The notes beneath the pieces are model-generated. The model was not told the origin of the DNA. It searched no databases and saw nothing but the letters and a program-made list of their open reading frames with translations. Below, in pieces: positions 1 to 6,480 of a DNA stretch of 6,480 nt (position 1 is the stretch's first letter; every line of letters begins with the position of its first letter). The stretch lies in IMG/VR virus record IMGVR_UViG_2537561716_000021, one strand, 5' to 3'. Made by a program: the position numbers and the translations under genes. Source of the DNA: a virus (taxonomy: Duplodnaviria > Heunggongvirae > Uroviricota > Caudoviricetes).

Positions 1-42
1 ACCAAGCCTTTGATATATAAGTGTTTTCTCTGTTAAGCGTGA

Positions 43-97
43 GCTACGTGAAAAATAATTTTTAGTGGGTATATCTGTTCAAGAGATTTCACGTAGC
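43..97. repeat. 11-bp perfect inverted repeat GCTACGTGAAA / TTTCACGTAGC with 33-bp AT-rich spacer
   Basis: Arms at 43-53 and 87-97. Lies in the non-coding stretch downstream of the tape-measure gene. Confidence 0.8.
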
Positions 98-144
98 ATT
101 CGACTATTCATAGTTGAATCGTCATACTAGATAAAGATTAATAG

Positions 145-162
145 ATTGCCATGTGTGGCAAT
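145..162 (-). terminator. possible weak terminator hairpin downstream of the tape-measure gene
   Basis: ATTGCCA-tgtg-TGGCAAT, a 7-bp stem with 4-nt loop, 25 nt past the stop at 187. On the minus strand it is followed by a U-rich but interrupted tract (CUAUUAAUCUUUAUCU). Could equally be an operator palindrome. Confidence 0.25.
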
Positions 163-186
163 AAATATTAGTAGTTCTAACATTGT

Positions 187-2265
187 TTATTCCTCTGGGT
201 AAGCTGAGCTAATCAAGGTATCTTCCTGCATACGATTAATATGTGATGTTGTCCTTTCATCAATAACTTTCCCATCAAGTACCGTCTGAGTTGTGATATT
301 GATTGTCTGAGGCTGAATATTTACTGACGGCTTGATAAGCTTTAAATCTTGTGTGAATGTTTCCACTCGACCTTTCAGATTATTTAATGCTTCAGGTGAA
401 AACTGTGGAACATCTTTTGATTTGCCCTGAACCATAGCCCATAAAACAGTGGCTAAAGAGTTCATGTCACCAGTTAATGCTTGGTCTGTGGGTTCCACCT
501 TTGACCTTACAACTTTATCAATTGGATTATCTGACTTACTCATCTGACGTTCACAGAACGGTTTGACAATGGCATTAATCACATCAGTTGCCATACCGAC
601 AATCATTACTTTGGTAATTGCATCAGCTACAGATAGCCTACTTTTTCCACCTTCAACACTACCAGTAGAACGTGAATTGATTCTTCCTGCTGCTGTATTT
701 GCCACATTTCCAAGCGTGGAAATGGCCCTAATTAAGTTCCAGATACCACCTACAGCACCAATCCCAGACCTTACAGCGACTATACCAGCAAGCCCCTTTA
801 ATGCACTTAACAGGCCATTTGCAAGACCATCAGCTACAGCTTTTTGAGTGTCATTTAATTCTCTGTAAGCAAGGGTCACTCTGTCAAAGAATCCCTGCAC
901 TCGGTAGCTAATCGTGGTTAAGTCATCAATACCGTTTGACATGCTTTTCATCAGGTCGCCAAAATGTTCACCAAGATTTTTAGATTGACCACCCAGTGAA
1001 TTAAGTAAATTAGTCAGTGACCTTGTAAAGTCTGTTAAACCTTCCTGTGAACCGTCGAACATTAAGGCCAAATTATTATTCCATGAATTACTTAAGCGGC
1101 CTAACTGCGTCTGAGTAGAGTTAATAATCTTTTCCCATCCCCCAGCTTTAGCAATCATATTACCCATTTCAGCGGATACTTTAGGAAGAACATCTTTAGA
1201 AAGAACTTTACCGTTCTTCATAGCTGCATCTAATTGCTCGGTAGTCATCCCAAGACTTCTGGCAAATAACTGAAAAGCACCTGCCATTCTGTCCCCTAAC
1301 TGACCGCGTAATTCTTCAGCTTGAATCTTGCCCTTGCTCGCCATCTGCTCAAAAGCTTTTAAAATCCCGTTAATTTCATCGGTGCTTAAACCCATTAATC
1401 TGGATGTACCAATCACATTAGAAAATAAGGATTCTTTCTGGCCTGTATCCATATCACCAGCACCAGCGGAAAACTTAGCAAAACTGCTTAATGTTTCAAT
1501 CTGGTCAACACCAGTATTATTAGCAAGATTCTTAACAAATTCTGTAGCTCGTTTAGCACCTTCATCACCTAAAACGAATTGTGCCGCTCGTTGTGATGCT
1601 TCTTTTTTCAGACCAATCTCCATAATCTTCCTATAAGCTTCTAAGGCTGTCTGAAAACTATAAATGGCTGTACCTGCTTTGATTGCACTTGTAGCTAATA
1701 CATCCAGACCATTCGAAGCCTTTTCACTGTGATTGTTTTTGCTGGTGGTCTTGTTAAACTTAGAAAGTGTTTCACGTAGATTTTGATTTAACTTTGCTAA
1801 CTCACGATTAAAAGCTTCGTTTCCAAGTGTCTTGGATTTACTACTTAATGCGTAAAACTGACTCTTAATGTATTTCTCGACAATTGGGTTAAGACCTTTC
1901 AGCTTGGTCATATTCGCTGAATAAGCTGCTGTGATTGCTCTGTTGCCGCTAATTCGTGGCTGTCTTGATTGTTTTGGAGGATTAACAGTGTCATTAAATC
2001 TGGTGGCAAACTGAAATGCTTTTGTGCTTCTTGCTCTCTGTTCAATCTTGTCAAAGGCCTTATTAAACTTCCTTTCAAGCTGCCCTAAAGAAGCCGTTAA
2101 ATTGCTATCAAGCTGCTTTGTATTAATCCTGAAACCTTTATTTAGGTTCTTTTCAATTCTTTGTGCTGACTGCAAAGCTGCCTTTTCAACTCTTTGCAAG
2201 CCCTTAATAACGTTCTCGCTGAAGCCTAGCTCAACGATAAAACTATCAACTGTGAATTTGCTCAT
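187..2265 (-). CDS. phage tail tape measure protein (tape-measure domain family)
   Basis: 692-aa ORF from the track. ATG at 2265..2263 with GAGGTGA 9 nt upstream. Internal stretch KAFEQMASKGKIQAEELRGQLGDRMAGAFQLFARSLGMTTEQLDAAMKNGKV matches the conserved tape-measure domain motif as I recall it. Gly/Ala-rich hydrophobic segment GLANGLLSALKGLAGIVAVRSGIGAVGGIW and helical, K/E/Q-rich N-terminal third are typical of this family. Not verified by search. Confidence 0.75.
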   Translation of the reverse strand: MSKFTVDSFIVELGFSENVIKGLQRVEKAALQSAQRIEKNLNKGFRINTKQLDSNLTASLGQLERKFNKAFDKIEQRARSTKAFQFATRFNDTVNPPKQSRQPRISGNRAITAAYSANMTKLKGLNPIVEKYIKSQFYALSSKSKTLGNEAFNRELAKLNQNLRETLSKFNKTTSKNNHSEKASNGLDVLATSAIKAGTAIYSFQTALEAYRKIMEIGLKKEASQRAAQFVLGDEGAKRATEFVKNLANNTGVDQIETLSSFAKFSAGAGDMDTGQKESLFSNVIGTSRLMGLSTDEINGILKAFEQMASKGKIQAEELRGQLGDRMAGAFQLFARSLGMTTEQLDAAMKNGKVLSKDVLPKVSAEMGNMIAKAGGWEKIINSTQTQLGRLSNSWNNNLALMFDGSQEGLTDFTRSLTNLLNSLGGQSKNLGEHFGDLMKSMSNGIDDLTTISYRVQGFFDRVTLAYRELNDTQKAVADGLANGLLSALKGLAGIVAVRSGIGAVGGIWNLIRAISTLGNVANTAAGRINSRSTGSVEGGKSRLSVADAITKVMIVGMATDVINAIVKPFCERQMSKSDNPIDKVVRSKVEPTDQALTGDMNSLATVLWAMVQGKSKDVPQFSPEALNNLKGRVETFTQDLKLIKPSVNIQPQTINITTQTVLDGKVIDERTTSHINRMQEDTLISSAYPEE

Positions 2266-2277
2266 TCATATTTTTCA

Positions 2278-2317
2278 CCTCATAGACTTCGGATAGAAGG
2301 CTATCCTCATATACAAA
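2278..2317. repeat. ~36-bp hairpin-containing repeat, copy A (just upstream of the tape-measure gene start)
   Basis: ATAGACTTCGGATAGAAGGCTATCCTCATATA at 2282-2313 contains the hairpin GGATAG-aagg-CTATCC (2291-2306). Matches copy B with one mismatch in the loop, and flanking bases are also similar. Confidence 0.85.
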
Positions 2318-2357
2318 AAAGGAGAGTTACCCAGATTGCCATCCAGATAATCTCTCC
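2314..2357 (-). terminator. possible intrinsic terminator between the 72-aa gene and the tape-measure gene
   Basis: On the minus strand GGAGAG (2357..2352) and CTCTCC (2326..2321) form a 6-bp stem followed directly by TTTTTTG (2320..2314). The 25-nt loop is long for a classic terminator. Confidence 0.3.
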
Positions 2358-2373
2358 CGTAGATTTTTACTAA

Positions 2374-2592
2374 CTAACCAACAACTGATACCCAATGATA
2401 ATCACCATCTTCACGAATAATTCTTGAACCAACCGGAATACGGTCAATGCACCACGAAGGAATTTTGCGAATCTTTATTTTGCTGTTTGAGGTGACAGGC
2501 TGATGCTTACTCTTTACCGTTTTTGGTTTACGTGGTTGGTTTTTAAGTTTTTCACAAACTGCCTTGATAGTCTCTAAACGTTCTTCAAACAT
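2374..2592 (-). CDS. hypothetical small basic protein (72 aa)
   Basis: ORF from track. ATG preceded by AGAGGTGA. Starts 22 nt downstream of the 236-aa gene stop, so probably co-transcribed. Lys/Arg-rich N-terminal half. No recognisable motif. Confidence 0.5.
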   Translation of the reverse strand: MFEERLETIKAVCEKLKNQPRKPKTVKSKHQPVTSNSKIKIRKIPSWCIDRIPVGSRIIREDGDYHWVSVVG

Positions 2593-2614
2593 TAATCACC
2601 TCTTTAATTCATAA

Positions 2615-3325
2615 TCAAACAGCCTTGCTATACTTCTGAGAAATCTTCGTTAACTGCTCAATATCAGCCATTAAAGCAATCTTCTTCTGCGACTCATATT
2701 CACTAACAAGCTCTTTCATGCTATCAAGTTCTTTTCTAAGTTTTTGCTTTAACTTATCCAGTTTATCGGAGTAATGCTTAGTCAAATTAGCTTCAGCTAA
2801 CTGAAGAATCTCTTCATCTGTTTTACCAGTCATCAGAATAAATTGACCAGAACCCCTTAATGCTTGTCTGACATCAATTAACCGGAACCCTTCAGGGATA
2901 CTTTGAAGAACTTTAGGAACGTCTTCAATCGCTGTACCAAAACCATCATTAAAGTTTCCTTCATAATAGATAAACGGGTTTGACTTAATCTCGTAAGCAA
3001 TATCATATTCTGAAGGTTTCGAGGTTTCTTCGAAGTTCTTAACAGCATCGTAAGCAATATCAAGTCGAATACGTTGTTCTTTCAGCTGTGGGTAATATTT
3101 CTTTTCAAGCTCAAGTAATGCTTCACCCTTGCAAATATCAGGCATCTCTTGAGGTTCAGGAGCCACAAAGATGGTTGTTTTTGGTGACATCTTTAACTCT
3201 TGCTCAAGTGCAATTCTTTCATCGTGTTCTTTACGCTGAATAGCGATAGCTGGATGTTCAGTCTGTGGTGACCAGTCACCGAAGCTGTCAACCTTTTTAC
3301 CGTTAATATATAAATCGTTTGTCAT
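2615..3325 (-). CDS. hypothetical protein (236 aa) with Lys/Glu-rich, probably coiled-coil C-terminus
   Basis: Track ORF 2615..3370 begins at a GTG (3370..3368) with no ribosome-binding site. The internal ATG at 3325..3323 is preceded by GAAGAGGG at good spacing, so the start is trimmed to 3325. C-terminal ~60 residues (DKLDKLKQKLRKELDSMKELVSEYESQKK) look coiled-coil. No family recognised. Confidence 0.6.
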   Translation of the reverse strand: MTNDLYINGKKVDSFGDWSPQTEHPAIAIQRKEHDERIALEQELKMSPKTTIFVAPEPQEMPDICKGEALLELEKKYYPQLKEQRIRLDIAYDAVKNFEETSKPSEYDIAYEIKSNPFIYYEGNFNDGFGTAIEDVPKVLQSIPEGFRLIDVRQALRGSGQFILMTGKTDEEILQLAEANLTKHYSDKLDKLKQKLRKELDSMKELVSEYESQKKIALMADIEQLTKISQKYSKAV

Positions 3326-3347
3326 TGTTTTTCCCTCTTCTAAGTAA

Positions 3348-3437
3348 TATTCAGTTTTTAAAAAGCACACCTGACAGCCTACGAACTTAGAAGAGACTTA
3401 AAAGCGTTTGCCAAGTGTGCTTTTTAAAAACTGAATA
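3348..3437. repeat. perfect 23-bp inverted repeat (TATTCAGTTTTTAAAAAGCACAC) with 44-bp spacer
   Basis: Arms at 3348-3370 and 3415-3437 are exact reverse complements. Each arm contains TTTTTAAAAA. The left arm ends 22 nt upstream of the ATG at 3325 (minus-strand sense). Confidence 0.9.
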
Positions 3438-3530
3438 GCCCTAGATAATTTCTTATAAAGGGCCATTCATAAGGTGAAGAAATTAAAAGAACATCTAAAG
3501 GATTCAAATGAATGAACAAAGATTTTTGAT

Positions 3531-3562
3531 ATGGCCTATTTAGTGTGGGCTAAATAAGCCAT
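3531..3562. repeat. 13-bp near-perfect inverted repeat ATGGCCTATTTAG / CTAAATAAGCCAT with 6-nt loop
   Basis: Arms 3531-3543 and 3550-3562 with one mismatch. No adjacent T-run on either strand, so not a classic terminator. Confidence 0.7.
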
Positions 3563-3643
3563 GACGAAAAGCATTGCACCTTTCAGAATAACTATCCCTA
3601 GATGTAGATGGAATTGTTGAAAGAAATAAGAGAGAATTGCTCT

Positions 3644-3685
3644 CCCTATAGACTTCGGATAGAAGACTATCCTCATATATACAAT
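3644..3685. repeat. ~36-bp hairpin-containing repeat, copy B (in the long intergenic region)
   Basis: ATAGACTTCGGATAGAAGACTATCCTCATATA at 3648-3679 with hairpin GGATAG-aaga-CTATCC (3657-3672). Immediately preceded by the small hairpin GAGAG-aattg-CTCTC. Confidence 0.85.
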
Positions 3686-3736
3686 TATGTCATGCTCAAG
3701 GTTATTTGTCAACAGCTTTTTAACAGATTGGTAACA

Positions 3737-3814
3737 TCAATTCTTATTTACCGTATTACCTACCCAGCAACCAACCAATAAGCCAAGCAACGTCCAAGCA
3801 ATTATTAAACCCAT
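3737..3814 (-). CDS. possible 25-aa hydrophobic peptide (MGLIIAWTLLGLLVGCWVGNTVNKN), speculative
   Basis: ATG at 3814..3812 overlaps the TAA stop of the 109-aa gene (TAATG coupling). Hydrophobic stretch ends in a lipobox-like L-V-G-C. Below the track length threshold, and the N-region has no positive charge. Confidence 0.2.
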   Translation of the reverse strand: MGLIIAWTLLGLLVGCWVGNTVNKN

Positions 3815-4143
3815 TAGTGAATCCTCATAGAATCCGCAACCAAAACATTGTCAGCGTACAAAATTGTCACAGCACCTTTCAGAAATTGCTCTGGGCTGAC
3901 ACTAAGTTTGTTTGTCTGTTCGATAATCAATCTTTTCATGTTGCTGTCTTTAATTGGTAGCATCATTCGAGGCTCGTTAAACTCCACCGACTGAATAAAG
4001 TCAGAGATGTTTTCTGCATTATCAGCCATCAAAGCTAACAGCCGGTCAAAGTCAATGCTAATACCTGCATCAGTGAAGTGTTGAAGCATGGTCACTGTGT
4101 CGATATCAAGCATAATTTGTAATGGGAAGTTTAATTCTCTCAT
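3814..4143 (-). CDS. hypothetical acidic protein (109 aa)
   Basis: ORF from track. ATG at 4143 with AAGGAG upstream. Lies immediately downstream (minus-strand sense) of repeat copy 1. No motif recognised. Confidence 0.55.
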   Translation of the reverse strand: MRELNFPLQIMLDIDTVTMLQHFTDAGISIDFDRLLALMADNAENISDFIQSVEFNEPRMMLPIKDSNMKRLIIEQTNKLSVSPEQFLKGAVTILYADNVLVADSMRIH

Positions 4144-4173
4144 TTCTTAAAATCTCCTTTTTACCAGACCTCC

Positions 4174-4291
4174 TCAATCGCTCTGTAACGAGCTAAACAG
4201 TCTTTTTCAGGGGTAGCCTGTACAGTGGTATTACCCACCCTAAAATAGGGTAGTTTTTTGCGTTAGAATGCGATTGAGAGCGTCTGAGAAG
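4174..4291. repeat. bipartite intergenic repeat, copy 1
   Basis: Left flank TCAATCGCTCTGTAACGAG (4174-4192) and right flank AGAATGCGATTGAGAGCGTCT (4265-4285) are identical to copy 2. The 72-nt core is divergent and holds the hairpin ACCCTA-aaa-TAGGGT (4237-4251) followed by T6 (4254-4259). Confidence 0.85.
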
Positions 4292-4299
4292 CTGTTTTT

Positions 4300-4587
4300 C
4301 TAATTTCGCTTAAAGTCTCGGACTTGCATAAGGTTTTTTGGTCTGGTATCGGCTCTGTTACCATTTCGATGGATAATTTGCTTATTGGATTGATAGCCAT
4401 GATAAAGGAACCAGACAACATATTTCACATAGAATGTGTATCGACCTATATTAAATGTTTTGTTGCCGTAGTCGTCGGTATTTATCGTGACTGACTCCCC
4501 ATCAGACCAGCACAGGGAATCACTGGATTCATCATAGATAAGGTGTTCTGCAAAATATCTTCTAACATCTTCATGCCAAGGTTTCAT
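4300..4587 (-). CDS. HNH endonuclease (HNH_3 / homing-endonuclease-like, 95 aa)
   Basis: C-terminal IIHRNGNRADTRPKNLMQV fits the H-x-x-G-x-x-x-D-x-x-x-x-N-L HNH core. Preceding aromatic-rich block (YTFYVKYVVWFLYHGY) resembles the region upstream of the HNH motif in small phage HNH proteins. Strong GAGGAGG site. ATGA start/stop overlap with the upstream gene. Confidence 0.7.
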   Translation of the reverse strand: MKPWHEDVRRYFAEHLIYDESSDSLCWSDGESVTINTDDYGNKTFNIGRYTFYVKYVVWFLYHGYQSNKQIIHRNGNRADTRPKNLMQVRDFKRN

Positions 4588-4799
4588 AAAACCTCCTCAC
4601 CCCAATAACCTAATTCAATCTTATGACGTTCAAACCATTCCGGTTTAACTGCTGTTTTCAGTGTTTCATTTGGGCCAATGGCTTTAATGAAAATATCTTT
4701 TGAGTTATGGATGTCACCGAATCCGTTTCCTTTAATCAGGAGGTCGGAGATGTAGCGAATCATTTTATCTGTGTGGTATTCAAAGGTAATGCATAGCAT
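4584..4799 (-). CDS. hypothetical protein (71 aa)
   Basis: ORF from track. ATG overlaps the stop of the 93-aa gene (TAATG) and its own stop overlaps the HNH start (ATGA), i.e. translationally coupled. No motif recognised. Confidence 0.5.
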   Translation of the reverse strand: MLCITFEYHTDKMIRYISDLLIKGNGFGDIHNSKDIFIKAIGPNETLKTAVKPEWFERHKIELGYWGEEVL

Positions 4800-5080
4800 T
4801 AAACCCCCATCGATAGCTTGTGAATCTTGATGCTCAATAGCCGGGCAATATCAATTTTAAAGTTGTTCAGTTCCTTCAGAGTAGCTAGAGCGTTCTGAGT
4901 AATTCTGATGTGTCTGCGACCTTTAGAAACTGGATATTTCAGTAAATCCGACTCAGTGACCTCTTTAGCAATTGCAAGCTGCATAATGGTTTGATGAGGC
5001 AGGTTAGTTGTCTGTTTAATTCGGGTAAGCTCGTGAAAGGCTTCTTCTGAAATACGGGTTAATGTGTGTTTGTTTTTCAT
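4799..5080 (-). CDS. hypothetical protein (93 aa), possibly a small DNA-binding regulator
   Basis: Track ORF 4799..5164 overlaps the 184-aa gene by 83 nt. The internal ATG at 5080..5078 has GAGGA about 8 nt upstream and sits 1 nt after the 184-aa stop (TAAAATG), so the start is trimmed. Function is a guess. Confidence 0.5.
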   Translation of the reverse strand: MKNKHTLTRISEEAFHELTRIKQTTNLPHQTIMQLAIAKEVTESDLLKYPVSKGRRHIRITQNALATLKELNNFKIDIARLLSIKIHKLSMGV

Positions 5081-5081
5081 T

Positions 5082-5636
5082 TTAAAATTCCTCTGCTTGT
5101 GCGTATACGTCAAATTCAAAGTCTGGTTCACTGGTCGTAAGGCTAATATTGCCCACTTCCACATGATGATTGATTGTCTCGATAACTTTCATGCAAATGG
5201 TAGTTAAATTAGCGCAATATTTATCAGATGGTAGCTCGTAGCTAAGTCTGGTTGCTTGACGCTGTAGATAATTTGTTATTGTGCTTGAGCTAATCTTGTC
5301 AATATTTCGTAGTAAATAGAAAACTTTTTGGTGATAATTATCCCTTCCAAAACTGCGACAAGTACCGATAATTGCATCTTCAATTTTTGATGGTAATTGC
5401 TTGTAGCTGTCAAAACTCATCAAGAAAGGTTTCAAGTTATTCTTCGTTGTTTTGCGTACTGGCATAAATCTGTCTCGTGGCGTAATGCTACGAATGACCG
5501 CTTCAATGTTTTTACGTTCGGATTTGGTAAAGGCTGGGACTTCGTAGCTGGTGGGGTTGTTTGTGTAGCTGTAACCGTTGTGTCTGTTGCGTCTCTTGGA
5601 TTCTTCAAGAAACTTTTGAAATTCTCTGTCGTTCAT
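5082..5636 (-). CDS. hypothetical protein (184 aa), first gene of the HNH operon
   Basis: ORF from track. ATG at 5636. Preceded by a candidate sigma70-like promoter on the minus strand. No family recognised. Confidence 0.6.
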   Translation of the reverse strand: MNDREFQKFLEESKRRNRHNGYSYTNNPTSYEVPAFTKSERKNIEAVIRSITPRDRFMPVRKTTKNNLKPFLMSFDSYKQLPSKIEDAIIGTCRSFGRDNYHQKVFYLLRNIDKISSSTITNYLQRQATRLSYELPSDKYCANLTTICMKVIETINHHVEVGNISLTTSEPDFEFDVYAQAEEF

Positions 5637-5686
5637 TCATAAGCTGGCCCTTATAATTGTTAATTCTCTGTTAACTCATATATACA

Positions 5687-5715
5687 ATCCTAGCATTTTC
5701 AAAGGCTAATGTCAA
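5687..5715 (-). promoter_or_regulatory. candidate sigma70-type promoter for the 184/93/71/HNH operon
   Basis: Minus-strand TTGACA (5715..5710), 17-nt spacer, TAGGAT (5692..5687), about 50 nt upstream of the ATG at 5636. The -10 is weak. Confidence 0.4.
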
Positions 5716-5722
5716 GTATTTT

Positions 5723-5752
5723 TTAACATTTTATTAACATCTGTGGTATAAT
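5723..5752 (+). promoter_or_regulatory. candidate rightward promoter with extended -10 (TTAACA, 18 nt, TGgTATAAT)
   Basis: TTAACA at 5723-5728. TG at 5744-5745 followed by TATAAT at 5747-5752. Divergent from the operon promoter. Would transcribe repeat copy 2 and the small ORF at 5934. Confidence 0.5.
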
Positions 5753-5830
5753 GGGTTTATGGGGAGAGTAAAATATAAAGGCGTGGCCATGTATTTGGTC
5801 ACATGGTTATTGCATTGCACACAGACATCT

Positions 5831-5925
5831 TCAATCGCTCTGTAACGAGTTAAATGGCCTCTTCAGGTCAACTATAAGGTCAGGTACTTTTTTGTGTCAG
5901 AATGCGATTGAGAGCGTCTTACAAG
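5831..5925. repeat. bipartite intergenic repeat, copy 2
   Basis: Left flank 5831-5849 and right flank 5899-5919 are identical to copy 1. The 49-nt core is different but also ends in T6 (5888-5893). Confidence 0.85.
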
Positions 5926-5933
5926 GAAAACTA

Positions 5934-6110
5934 ATGGTAAATCTCCCTCAGGAATTGGGGTCACCTGATGTGTGGGCTGGTGGAGGTATTGGACTTATTG
6001 CAGGTCTGCTACTTCGCTACGTCCTCGTCAGGGTGCTTGTTGTCTTTAAACTGTTCGGTCGTACATGGACGCTTGACCTTAAGGATAACGACCATACAGA
6101 CCCCCGTTAA
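5934..6110 (+). CDS. possible small membrane protein (58 aa: MVNLPQELGSPDVWAGGGIGLIAGLLLRYVLVRVLVVFKLFGRTWTLDLKDNDHTDPR)
   Basis: Track ORF 5892..6110 begins with TTG. The ATG at 5934 has AAGGA 7 nt upstream. One clear hydrophobic helix (GIGLIAGLLLRYVLVRVLVVF). Lies in a GC-richer ~200-bp stretch between the AT-rich block and the IS end. Confidence 0.35.
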   Translation: MVNLPQELGSPDVWAGGGIGLIAGLLLRYVLVRVLVVFKLFGRTWTLDLKDNDHTDPR

Positions 6111-6142
6111 AATCCCTCCAAAACCCCCTGTACGAGATGGTA

Positions 6143-6480
6143 TGAACCGCCCCGGGTTTCCTGGAGAGTGTTTTATCTGTGAACTCAGGCTGCCAGATCA
6201 TCGTTTCCGATGGAAGCATAATAAGCTTTTTCTGCTTCTGCCGGAGGAGTATGGCCCAGCCTTCCCAGCAATCGTCGATTGTTATCCCAGTCCACCCACG
6301 TTAGTGTGGCCAGTTCCACTTCTGCCGGTTTTTCCAGCTCTTACGGTGTATTACCTCCGCTTTGTAAAGACCATTGATGCTCTCGCCATCGCGTTGTCAC
6401 GAGTCGCCTGTACTCCCTGTTGATGCCAGTAATCCGGCTTCTTTTAGTCGCTCCGTATAGGCCAGTGACACATACTGAGA
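6143..6480 (-). mobile_element. IS3-family insertion sequence, terminal part (IS629/IS1203-like as recalled), continuing past the window edge
   Basis: Terminal sequence TGAACCGCCCCGGGTTTCCTGGAGAG starts at 6143 and matches the IS629-group terminal inverted repeat as I remember it. Minus-strand translation from the window edge reads SQYVSLAYTERLKEAGLLASTGSTGDS and later ESINGLYKAEVIHRKSWKNR and AEVELATLTWVDW...GHTPPAEAEKAYYASIGNDDLAA, a DDE transposase OrfB C-terminus. Composition is visibly GC-richer than the rest. Confidence 0.7.
6185..6480 (-). pseudogene. IS3-family transposase OrfB, C-terminal portion, disrupted
   Basis: In the frame that encodes SQYVSLAYTERLKEAGLLASTGSTGDS there is an in-frame TGA at 6399..6397, exactly where the conserved YDNA motif should be. 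The conserved C-terminal tail is then in a different frame (shift near 6322-6327) and ends at TGA 6187..6185. Hand-translated. Confidence 0.5.

Follow-up and report, generated by a model that had tools for sequence, protein, structure and literature searches.

Does the short segment that points away from the operon at the right end of this viral stretch encode a protein, an RNA or neither, and what might its product do? The stretch (6,480 nucleotides (nt) of IMG/VR record IMGVR_UViG_2537561716_000021, Caudoviricetes, hereafter the window) carries a leftward operon and beyond it a rightward promoter, a structured leader and a small open reading frame (ORF) for 58 amino acids, until an insertion sequence (IS) takes over. 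The first-pass annotation had seen here a long structured leader with a possible attenuator in front of a type I toxin or holin-like module or, alternatively, a ~135-nt small RNA. Compared with its relatives, 5723-6142 is a predicted transcription unit—conserved promoter, leader, ribosome-binding site, selected gene and a post-stop hairpin that is cut by IS629—and the small gene is, in the same comparison, a core, divergently transcribed part of a chromosomal island. We lean, by a little more than an even chance, toward reading it as a conserved, self-contained small membrane-protein unit that acts as a membrane effector in the resident state. The gene is annotated in some genomes only, always as a hypothetical protein (PGAP skips the ORF in others), despite its strong conservation in the core of the island. 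Whether a phage is excluded, an infection aborted or lysis re-timed often depends on small membrane proteins of mobile elements, and a function for this peptide would give a handle on the role of an unstudied island.

The ORF runs on the plus strand from ATG 5934 to TAA 6108-6110 (5934..6110) and is preceded by a Shine-Dalgarno sequence AAGGAA (5923..5928, plus strand) 5 nt 5' of the ATG; relatives that lack the repeat discussed below keep an equivalent ribosome-binding site, AGGAAA or AAGG. It is intact in all 16 distinct DNA alleles from Escherichia coli, Escherichia albertii and Citrobacter. Neither loss nor frame disruption in close homologues, the outcome held beforehand to speak against a functional unit, was encountered among them, so that this check leaves the unit standing, and the surrounding ~200-bp segment is present in all IS-free relatives. 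Pairs of these alleles with dS > 0.2 have a median ratio of nonsynonymous to synonymous substitution rates (dN/dS) of 0.18, variable sites are distributed 31/11/43 over codon positions 1/2/3, indels (9 and 12 nt) keep the frame, and the other two frames of the region contain stops in all alleles. Intact protein clusters count 527, 264, 144 and 127 members, frameshifted forms being only few. By this comparison, the ORF is a genuine gene under purifying selection. Its composition is distinct as well, as had been noticed at first sight: 49.7% GC in the ORF as compared with 38.5% in the island, 28.7% in the promoter block and 51.5% in the IS. A 72-residue version from TTG 5892 was dropped because its start codon falls within the optional repeat.

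The promoter in front of this gene is a predicted extended -10 sigma-70 promoter on the plus strand (5723..5752), composed of TTAACA (5723-5728), an 18-nt spacer, TG (5744-5745) and TATAAT (5747-5752), and hence lies exactly where it had first been placed. In a consensus scan, it scores 11/12 plus the TG and is among the two best sites in the window. Promoter-like sites as such are found in the window at chance level—18 observed versus 15.9 +/- 5.0 in shuffles. Hence, a consensus match by itself proves nothing, and it is conservation that serves as evidence. The TGGTATAAT block is unchanged in ten E. coli relatives, in more divergent islands and in Citrobacter sp. ANG330. No change of the extended -10 occurs in the 11 sequences of one alignment, in 9 more divergent ones of another or, again, in ANG330, and the TGGTATAATGG block is invariant wherever E. 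coli or Citrobacter relatives retain the promoter region. The spacer and the flanks are variable among relatives. Transcription is predicted to start near 5759-5761. This start coincides with an ATG at 5759, whose frame (5759-5845) spans 28 codons here and 6-11 elsewhere; as a conserved leaderless peptide, this frame was rejected, its 6-28 codons being unrelated in sequence among alleles.

Back to back with this promoter, with 7 bp between the two -35 boxes, lies the leftward promoter of the island operon on the minus strand (5687..5715; TTGACA 5715-5710, 17 nt, TAGGAT 5692-5687, TG upstream), which is conserved in the alignments. The cassette of the operon promoter recurs at 3672-3738 and, reversed, in the right arm of the island, and the small-gene promoter stands outside this promoter-cassette family. 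Since the small-gene promoter is of the ordinary host type, and the other island promoters belong to the cassette family with its weak -10, host RNA polymerase probably transcribes the small gene while the island is resident.

The most conspicuous part of the leader is repeat copy 2 (5822..5925, plus strand), a ~100-nt palindromic cassette just 5' of the ribosome-binding site, which bears a T6 at 5888-5893 and does lie between promoter and ORF, as first described. It is a direct repeat of copy 1 (4165..4291, plus strand), the same cassette directly 3' of the opposite-strand HNH gene, and each of the two forms a long imperfect palindrome. Four E. coli islands (L004, L010, L011, L013) and all divergent islands (L020, L022-24, L030) are cleanly without copy 2. 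A query coverage of at least 80%, which requires copy 2, is reached by only 176 of the 409 matching E. coli genomes; the insertion is thus lacking in the majority of E. coli islands. Islands with a replaced HNH module (L003, L007, L009, L011) have no copy 1, and strain CFSAN061772 has a third copy, divergent and inverted, in the right arm of its island, where a closing stem of different composition still forms. Judged by this distribution, copy 2 is a late, optional and strain-variable insertion rather than an ancestral regulatory leader. Because it is missing from most islands, neither a T6 attenuator nor a ~135-nt small RNA ending at the T6 can be a conserved function, and these two proposals of the first-pass annotation have to be given up. 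The conspicuous structured leader had thus been misread: it is a mobile palindromic cassette by all appearances and not a riboswitch-like control element.

Both window copies fold as long closed stems on the plus strand (z = -4.0 and -2.9), copy 2 reaching -2.9 on the plus strand versus -1.4 on the minus strand, and one-sided substitutions in the closing stem mostly preserve G.U pairs on the plus strand. In copy 2, 5 nt separate the U-run and the inner stem, an unfavourable spacing for a terminator. Rfam covariance models gave no match in the window at E <= 1 and only a sub-threshold rhtB match in the IS-free island L002. We regard the cassette as a portable hairpin, which may serve as attenuator, insulator or RNase III-type processing site. 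A candidate minus-strand promoter within copy 2 (5900..5871) was discarded, as its -10 needs a one-base deletion that other alleles do not share.

What remains of the leader is more constant. It measures 175 nt here, including copy 2 and the T6, and is modular, ranging from about 70 to about 220 nt among variants. All variants have in common a purine-rich 5' end, a GTGGCyA/TGGTCAC hairpin and the box TTGCATTGCACACAG. The hairpin, GTGGCCA-loop-TGGTCAC in the window (5783..5802, plus strand), is ancestral, and its loop hosts palindromic insertions in other strains; leaders thus show two types of palindromic insertion, one within this loop and the other, copy 2, before the ribosome-binding site. 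Its stem is kept on the plus strand, a G.U being replaced by A-U in Citrobacter and one E. coli allele having U.G. The conserved box ATGGTTATTGCATTGCACACAG follows (5803..5824, plus strand); TTGCATTGCACACAG is invariant in both alignments, L030 has TTGCATTACACAG, and TTTTTTG stands after the hairpin in several relatives. The leaders of L009, L004, L011 and L013 bear a nested palindrome GGTTTATTCGATA...AACCGAATCAACTAT in the hairpin loop with an inner GGGGTTGGNACAAGCCCAAC hairpin, which recurs near the right end of the island (L002 about 23503-23522).

The mRNA is predicted to begin with a purine-rich stretch, AUGGGGAGAG (5759..5768, plus strand), which is complementary to codons 4-6 of the ORF. 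On the side of the gene, AAUCUCCCUC (5941..5950, plus strand; codons 3-6) is nucleotide-invariant in the alleles of E. coli and Citrobacter portucalensis (L020), and positions 5943-5949 are identical in all nine sequences of the divergent-island alignment. In minimum free energy folds, the predicted 5' end (GGGGAGAG, 5761-5768, or GAGAGAGGG) pairs with codons 4-6 (CUCCCUC, 5944-5950) in three of the four leaders folded. The duplex energies amount to -10.7 to -15.9 kcal/mol in 8 alleles, taking the predicted start site, and Citrobacter sp. ANG330 has a 7-bp version of the pairing. The ribosome-binding site is strong and stays unpaired in these folds. The pairing hints at a possible lock on translation, and it makes the architecture compatible with a tightly dosed membrane-active peptide.

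The encoded protein is 56-63 residues long across alleles and is laid out as an acidic N-terminal segment, a glycine-zipper transmembrane helix, a basic juxtamembrane stretch and a polar tail (5934..6110). The single transmembrane-like helix that had been recognized early on is borne out by both predictors: the highest 19-residue Kyte–Doolittle mean is 2.29 (residues 19-37), and AlphaFold2 models a single helix over residues 11-51 (predicted local distance difference test score 72). Invariant residues include W14, G17, G18, G20, A23, G24, R28 and R33; residue 16 is Gly or Ser and residues 39 and 43 are Lys or Arg throughout. The pattern corresponds to a glycine zipper, G16xxxG20xxxG24, followed by a basic stretch, and the protein probably oligomerizes via this zipper. 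The first 13 residues hold two acidic and zero basic residues (-2), and residues 28-45 hold four basic ones (+4). With the N-terminal side acidic and the C-terminal side basic, the positive-inside rule suggests that the protein probably inserts into the inner membrane N-out/C-in. The homology and topology check asked for at the outset came out in two halves: the charges suggest an orientation, and homologues are found only within the island family. Pfam, PHROGs, NCBIfam and PADLOC gave no match to the protein, among 5.8 billion proteins a word-indexed search returned island copies only, a HMMER profile search of 1.84 billion representatives retrieved 15 proteins, all of the same family, and a PDB sequence search found no related solved structure.

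Downstream of the stop codon, the 5' arm and loop of a hairpin, CCCCTGTAC GAGATG GTA (6125..6142, plus strand), are left, the 3' arm having been removed by the IS. In L002, the intact hairpin CCCCTGTACGTGATGGTATAGGGG plus TATCTTTAGC was scored terminator-like; in strain YJ1 (L004 about 9395-9420), the hairpin (CCCCTGTACGAGATGGTATAGGGG) stands as its own exact reverse complement, a small inversion between the arms. The IS itself, an end of IS629/IS1203 (IS3-family; 6143..6480, transposase on the minus strand), begins 32 nt past the stop codon and leaves the ORF intact. Strain E32511 (L001) shows 100% identity as far as 6143 and is IS-free there, and none of the complete genomes has the exact IS junction of the window. 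IS629/IS1203 hit this 400-bp region in three independent ways in Shiga-toxin strains: after the ORF (window 6143), inside the ORF (Rafaela_II) and inside copy 2 (O111-type remnants), with insertion coordinates at window 6143, L027 3055-3060 and L005 8950-9000. In Rafaela_II of O157:H7, the IS truncates the ORF after codon 19, and in both O157 insertions, the IS end directly follows GGTA. These three separate insertions point to an island that is decaying in Shiga-toxin strains.

The element that carries the gene is chromosomal. Matches to the window region were found in the chromosomes of 401-409 of the 5,426 complete E. coli genomes, so that about 7.5% carry the island; no plasmid matches the region over its length, and a megablast search of plasmids with window 1-6150 gave no match. 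Neither the ORF (tblastn against 50,697 phage records) nor its region (blastn) matched a phage, and the sole match of the window region in phage records is a piece of 95 nt at the start of the tape-measure gene. Window 1-6142 lies entirely inside an island of 11-13 kb (L001 12142-25400; L002 12291-23700), which is found at three integration sites—in yecE, in the tonB-yciI interval and in the wrbA-ymdF interval—and has a large serine recombinase as its integrator gene. Besides E. coli, it is hosted by E. albertii and Citrobacter, and a species survey of 185,579 genomes gave as ORF carriers only E. albertii and one Citrobacter. The island encodes a tape-measure protein, a 'baseplate' protein bearing a Dit-like domain, an HNH_3 endonuclease, several proteins without assignment, the 184-residue protein and a small rightward ORF; its right arm of 2-3 kb is largely non-coding and bears variable cargo. 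The leftward operon in the window comprises the tape-measure gene (187-2265), small ORFs, the HNH gene (4300-4587) and the 184-residue ORF (5082-5636), and the small gene adjoins the latter in every island variant examined, at all three sites. The nearest phage relatives of the tape-measure protein are Felix-O1-like myoviruses with ~29% identity over the full length. The island looks satellite-like from its gene content; possibly it is indeed a satellite, or else it serves in defence against Felix-O1-like phages. A description of this island was not found in the literature, and the island, as yet unstudied, is a more novel object than the small gene itself.

How the gene might work can be outlined for the reading we lean toward, the resident-state membrane effector. 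Host RNA polymerase would transcribe the small gene while the island is resident. The peptide would enter the inner membrane N-out/C-in, oligomerize via its glycine zipper and act as an accessory effector at the membrane level, either in exclusion or abortive defence against the phage with which the island interacts or in the control of lysis timing. Its output would be held low post-transcriptionally because codons 4-6 are tied up by the 5' end; strains that have the hairpin cassette might gain further damping from this insertion and its U-run. Several points weigh against this outline. Transcript, start site and protein are predictions, and the proposed function draws on context and motif. 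A homologue of the family outside the island was not found, and the defence, phage and general profile libraries were without a match. The 5'-end pairing beats shuffles only moderately (fractions 0.007-0.2) and hangs on the predicted start site; as it joins a polypurine to a polypyrimidine tract, it is of low complexity. The hairpin after the ORF is followed by a poor U-tract, and its sequence is not conserved in divergent islands, so that transcripts may run on into the non-coding right arm. Finally, a true moron is variably present, and the small gene is always present.

Membership in a known toxin or holin class would account for such a peptide as well, though both are minority options and unproven. 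A type I toxin-antitoxin-like locus, in which a depolarizing membrane toxin with a 5'-paired, inert primary transcript and an unseen antisense RNA stabilizes the island, strikes us as unlikely. The traits of the peptide—56-63 residues, one hydrophobic helix, glycine zipper, charged tail—suit such toxins, and the pairing of the predicted 5' end with codons 4-6 across alleles recalls the primary transcripts of tisB, zorO and dinQ, which are locked by 5' structure. The partner is where the case falls short. Neither within the ORF nor beside it did scans reveal a conserved minus-strand promoter—the only candidate, at 5900..5871, needs the one-base deletion mentioned above—although consensus scans can miss weak promoters, and the island has no inverted repeat complementary to the mRNA elsewhere. 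A minus-strand AAAATGCTAAAGAT just past the ORF hairpin does resemble the promoter cassette of the island; it is conserved in E. coli variants, but not in divergent islands, and the IS 32 nt past the stop cuts the ORF off from any convergent antisense promoter with the ORF still intact. Pfam, NCBIfam and PADLOC, known toxin families included, were unmatched, and the ribosome-binding site is not sequestered in the folds. Of the toxin proposal, the features of the peptide fit and a lock at the mRNA 5' end may exist; a conserved antisense promoter, a complementary RNA and a family match were not found. Rather improbable appears a holin-like or LidI-like lysis-timing protein, by which a phage satellite would trigger or speed the lysis of the infected cell. 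One transmembrane helix, a charged C-terminal tail and a glycine zipper—the latter a feature of pinholin channels—would fit, as would the satellite-like appearance of the island, and the Vibrio cholerae satellite PLE does encode LidI, a 66-residue transmembrane protein that was earlier unannotated and is undetectable without phage infection (PMC7182436). Against this reading, the small gene has a host-type consensus promoter, unlike the repeated cassette of the island; a dual-start motif is absent; endolysin, spanin and antiholin were not found in any island variant; and the holin profiles of PHROG and Pfam were unmatched. An improbable but consequential combination of these ideas is that the island is a PLE-like satellite of virulent Felix-O1-like myoviruses in Escherichia and Citrobacter and that the peptide, its resident-state membrane effector with translation locked by the mRNA 5' end, is unleashed upon infection to abort or re-time lysis—if true, this would be a type I-toxin-like lock acting without antisense RNA.

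Two further explanations turn on a non-coding RNA or on a DNA site. That a non-coding RNA is the real product, either as the ~135-nt RNA to the T6 or as the hairpin cassette, and that the ORF is incidental, has very little to commend it by now: the long closed stem of copy 2, its preference for the plus strand and the G.U-preserving substitutions of the closing stem argue for an RNA, but the cassette and its T6 are missing from most islands with promoter and ORF remaining, the ORF is under clear purifying selection, Rfam families are unmatched, and the distance of the U-run from the inner stem makes a poor terminator. The comparison of islands has largely refuted this proposal. It is similarly far-fetched that the nucleotide-level conservation where the ORF begins is owed to a DNA site instead of RNA pairing, namely, to a degenerate Xer (cer/dif-like) site GCGTCTTACAA-GGAAAAC-TAATGGTAAAT. 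The idea stems from 34 nt of the cassette 3' arm that are shared with about 42 small mobilizable plasmids (window 5888-5942). In the one plasmid read (L025, 2990-3070), these 34 nt directly precede GGTACGTACAA-GAGGAG-TTATGGTAAAT, which we take to be a cer-like Xer site, and the island TAATGGTAAAT at the start of the small ORF agrees in 10/11 positions with the XerD arm of cer. However, the XerC arm agrees in 7/11 positions and its 7-bp spacer is atypical, islands without the repeat carry a different left arm, and the plasmid match is short (E about 1e-3), the plasmid region folding unlike the cassette (z = -0.6). The cer-like lead from plasmids is hence a weak one.

A number of neighbouring features deserve mention in their own right. 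Pfam, PHROGs, PADLOC and NCBIfam left most neighbour proteins unmatched, the only real matches being the tape-measure protein and the HNH endonuclease; a 93-residue neighbour gave two weak sub-threshold profile matches only. The 236-residue protein (2615-3325, minus strand) has no match in Pfam, PHROG, NCBIfam or PADLOC, and its RefSeq name is 'transposase' or 'hypothetical protein', depending on the genome. In the ~350-nt untranslated region before its gene lies an inverted repeat with 29-nt arms that are 93% complementary (3348-3437), the L002 equivalent of which gave the sub-threshold match to the rhtB small RNA (29 bits versus a gathering score of 55). The promoter cassette before the 184-residue and 236-residue genes consists of TTGACA, N17, a weak -10 and then TGTATATATGAG. 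A related TGTATATGAG box precedes the tape-measure gene without a clear -35 (cassette and related box together cover 2270-2318, 3636-3738 and 5675-5741 of the window), and a hairpin GGATAG-N4-CTATCC follows the box before the tape-measure and 236-residue genes. The right arm of L002 (20610-21819, 22481-23700) contains stretches of >1 kb without a plausible ORF, in which tandem promoter-like cassettes (20731-20778 and 20826-20873), three iteron-like CCGACCTTCTTAA units (about 20967-21005) and a box CTGTAACTTCCCTCTTAACGGGAGA occurring twice (at 21091 and 21708) are found. They might serve as a replication origin or, alternatively, harbour several genes for non-coding RNAs.

Among known systems, the repeat cassettes recall the mobile regulatory cassettes of phages, such as the T4-type 'PeSL' promoter/stem-loop repeats and the RNase III hairpins between T7 genes. 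Copies 1-3 are likewise portable hairpin cassettes of 100-135 nt that sit in intergenic regions or 5' untranslated regions, in either orientation and with strain-variable presence; a promoter inside the island cassettes would be putative, and they have no known sequence relation to those of phages. With the type I loci hok/sok, tisB/istR-1, zorO/orzO and dinQ/agrB, the small gene shares a hydrophobic peptide of less than 65 residues, a long 5' untranslated region and a predicted mRNA 5' end that pairs with the translation-initiation region. It differs from them in that an antisense or divergent small RNA partner was not found, homology is lacking, its ribosome-binding site is unpaired, and its leader varies from ~70 to 220 nt through insertions.

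Moron-type prophage genes, with HK97 gp15 and T4 Imm as examples, code for small exclusion proteins of the inner membrane. Here, too, a single small gene is placed between its own host-type promoter and a post-stop hairpin (the latter in IS-free relatives), its base composition is off from that of its neighbours (49.7% versus 38.5% GC), and its predicted product is a small inner-membrane protein of an element that also has a tape-measure gene. The small gene differs from them in that it shows no sequence similarity and occurs in every island examined rather than sporadically. By analogy, the nearest functional counterpart is LidI of PLE, likewise a transmembrane protein of ~60 residues often overlooked by annotation; the small gene differs from it by its consensus host promoter, LidI being undetectable without phage infection. 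PLE is integrated by a serine recombinase, as is the island of the small gene, and this island, putatively a satellite, probably interacts with a virulent myovirus in a similar fashion.

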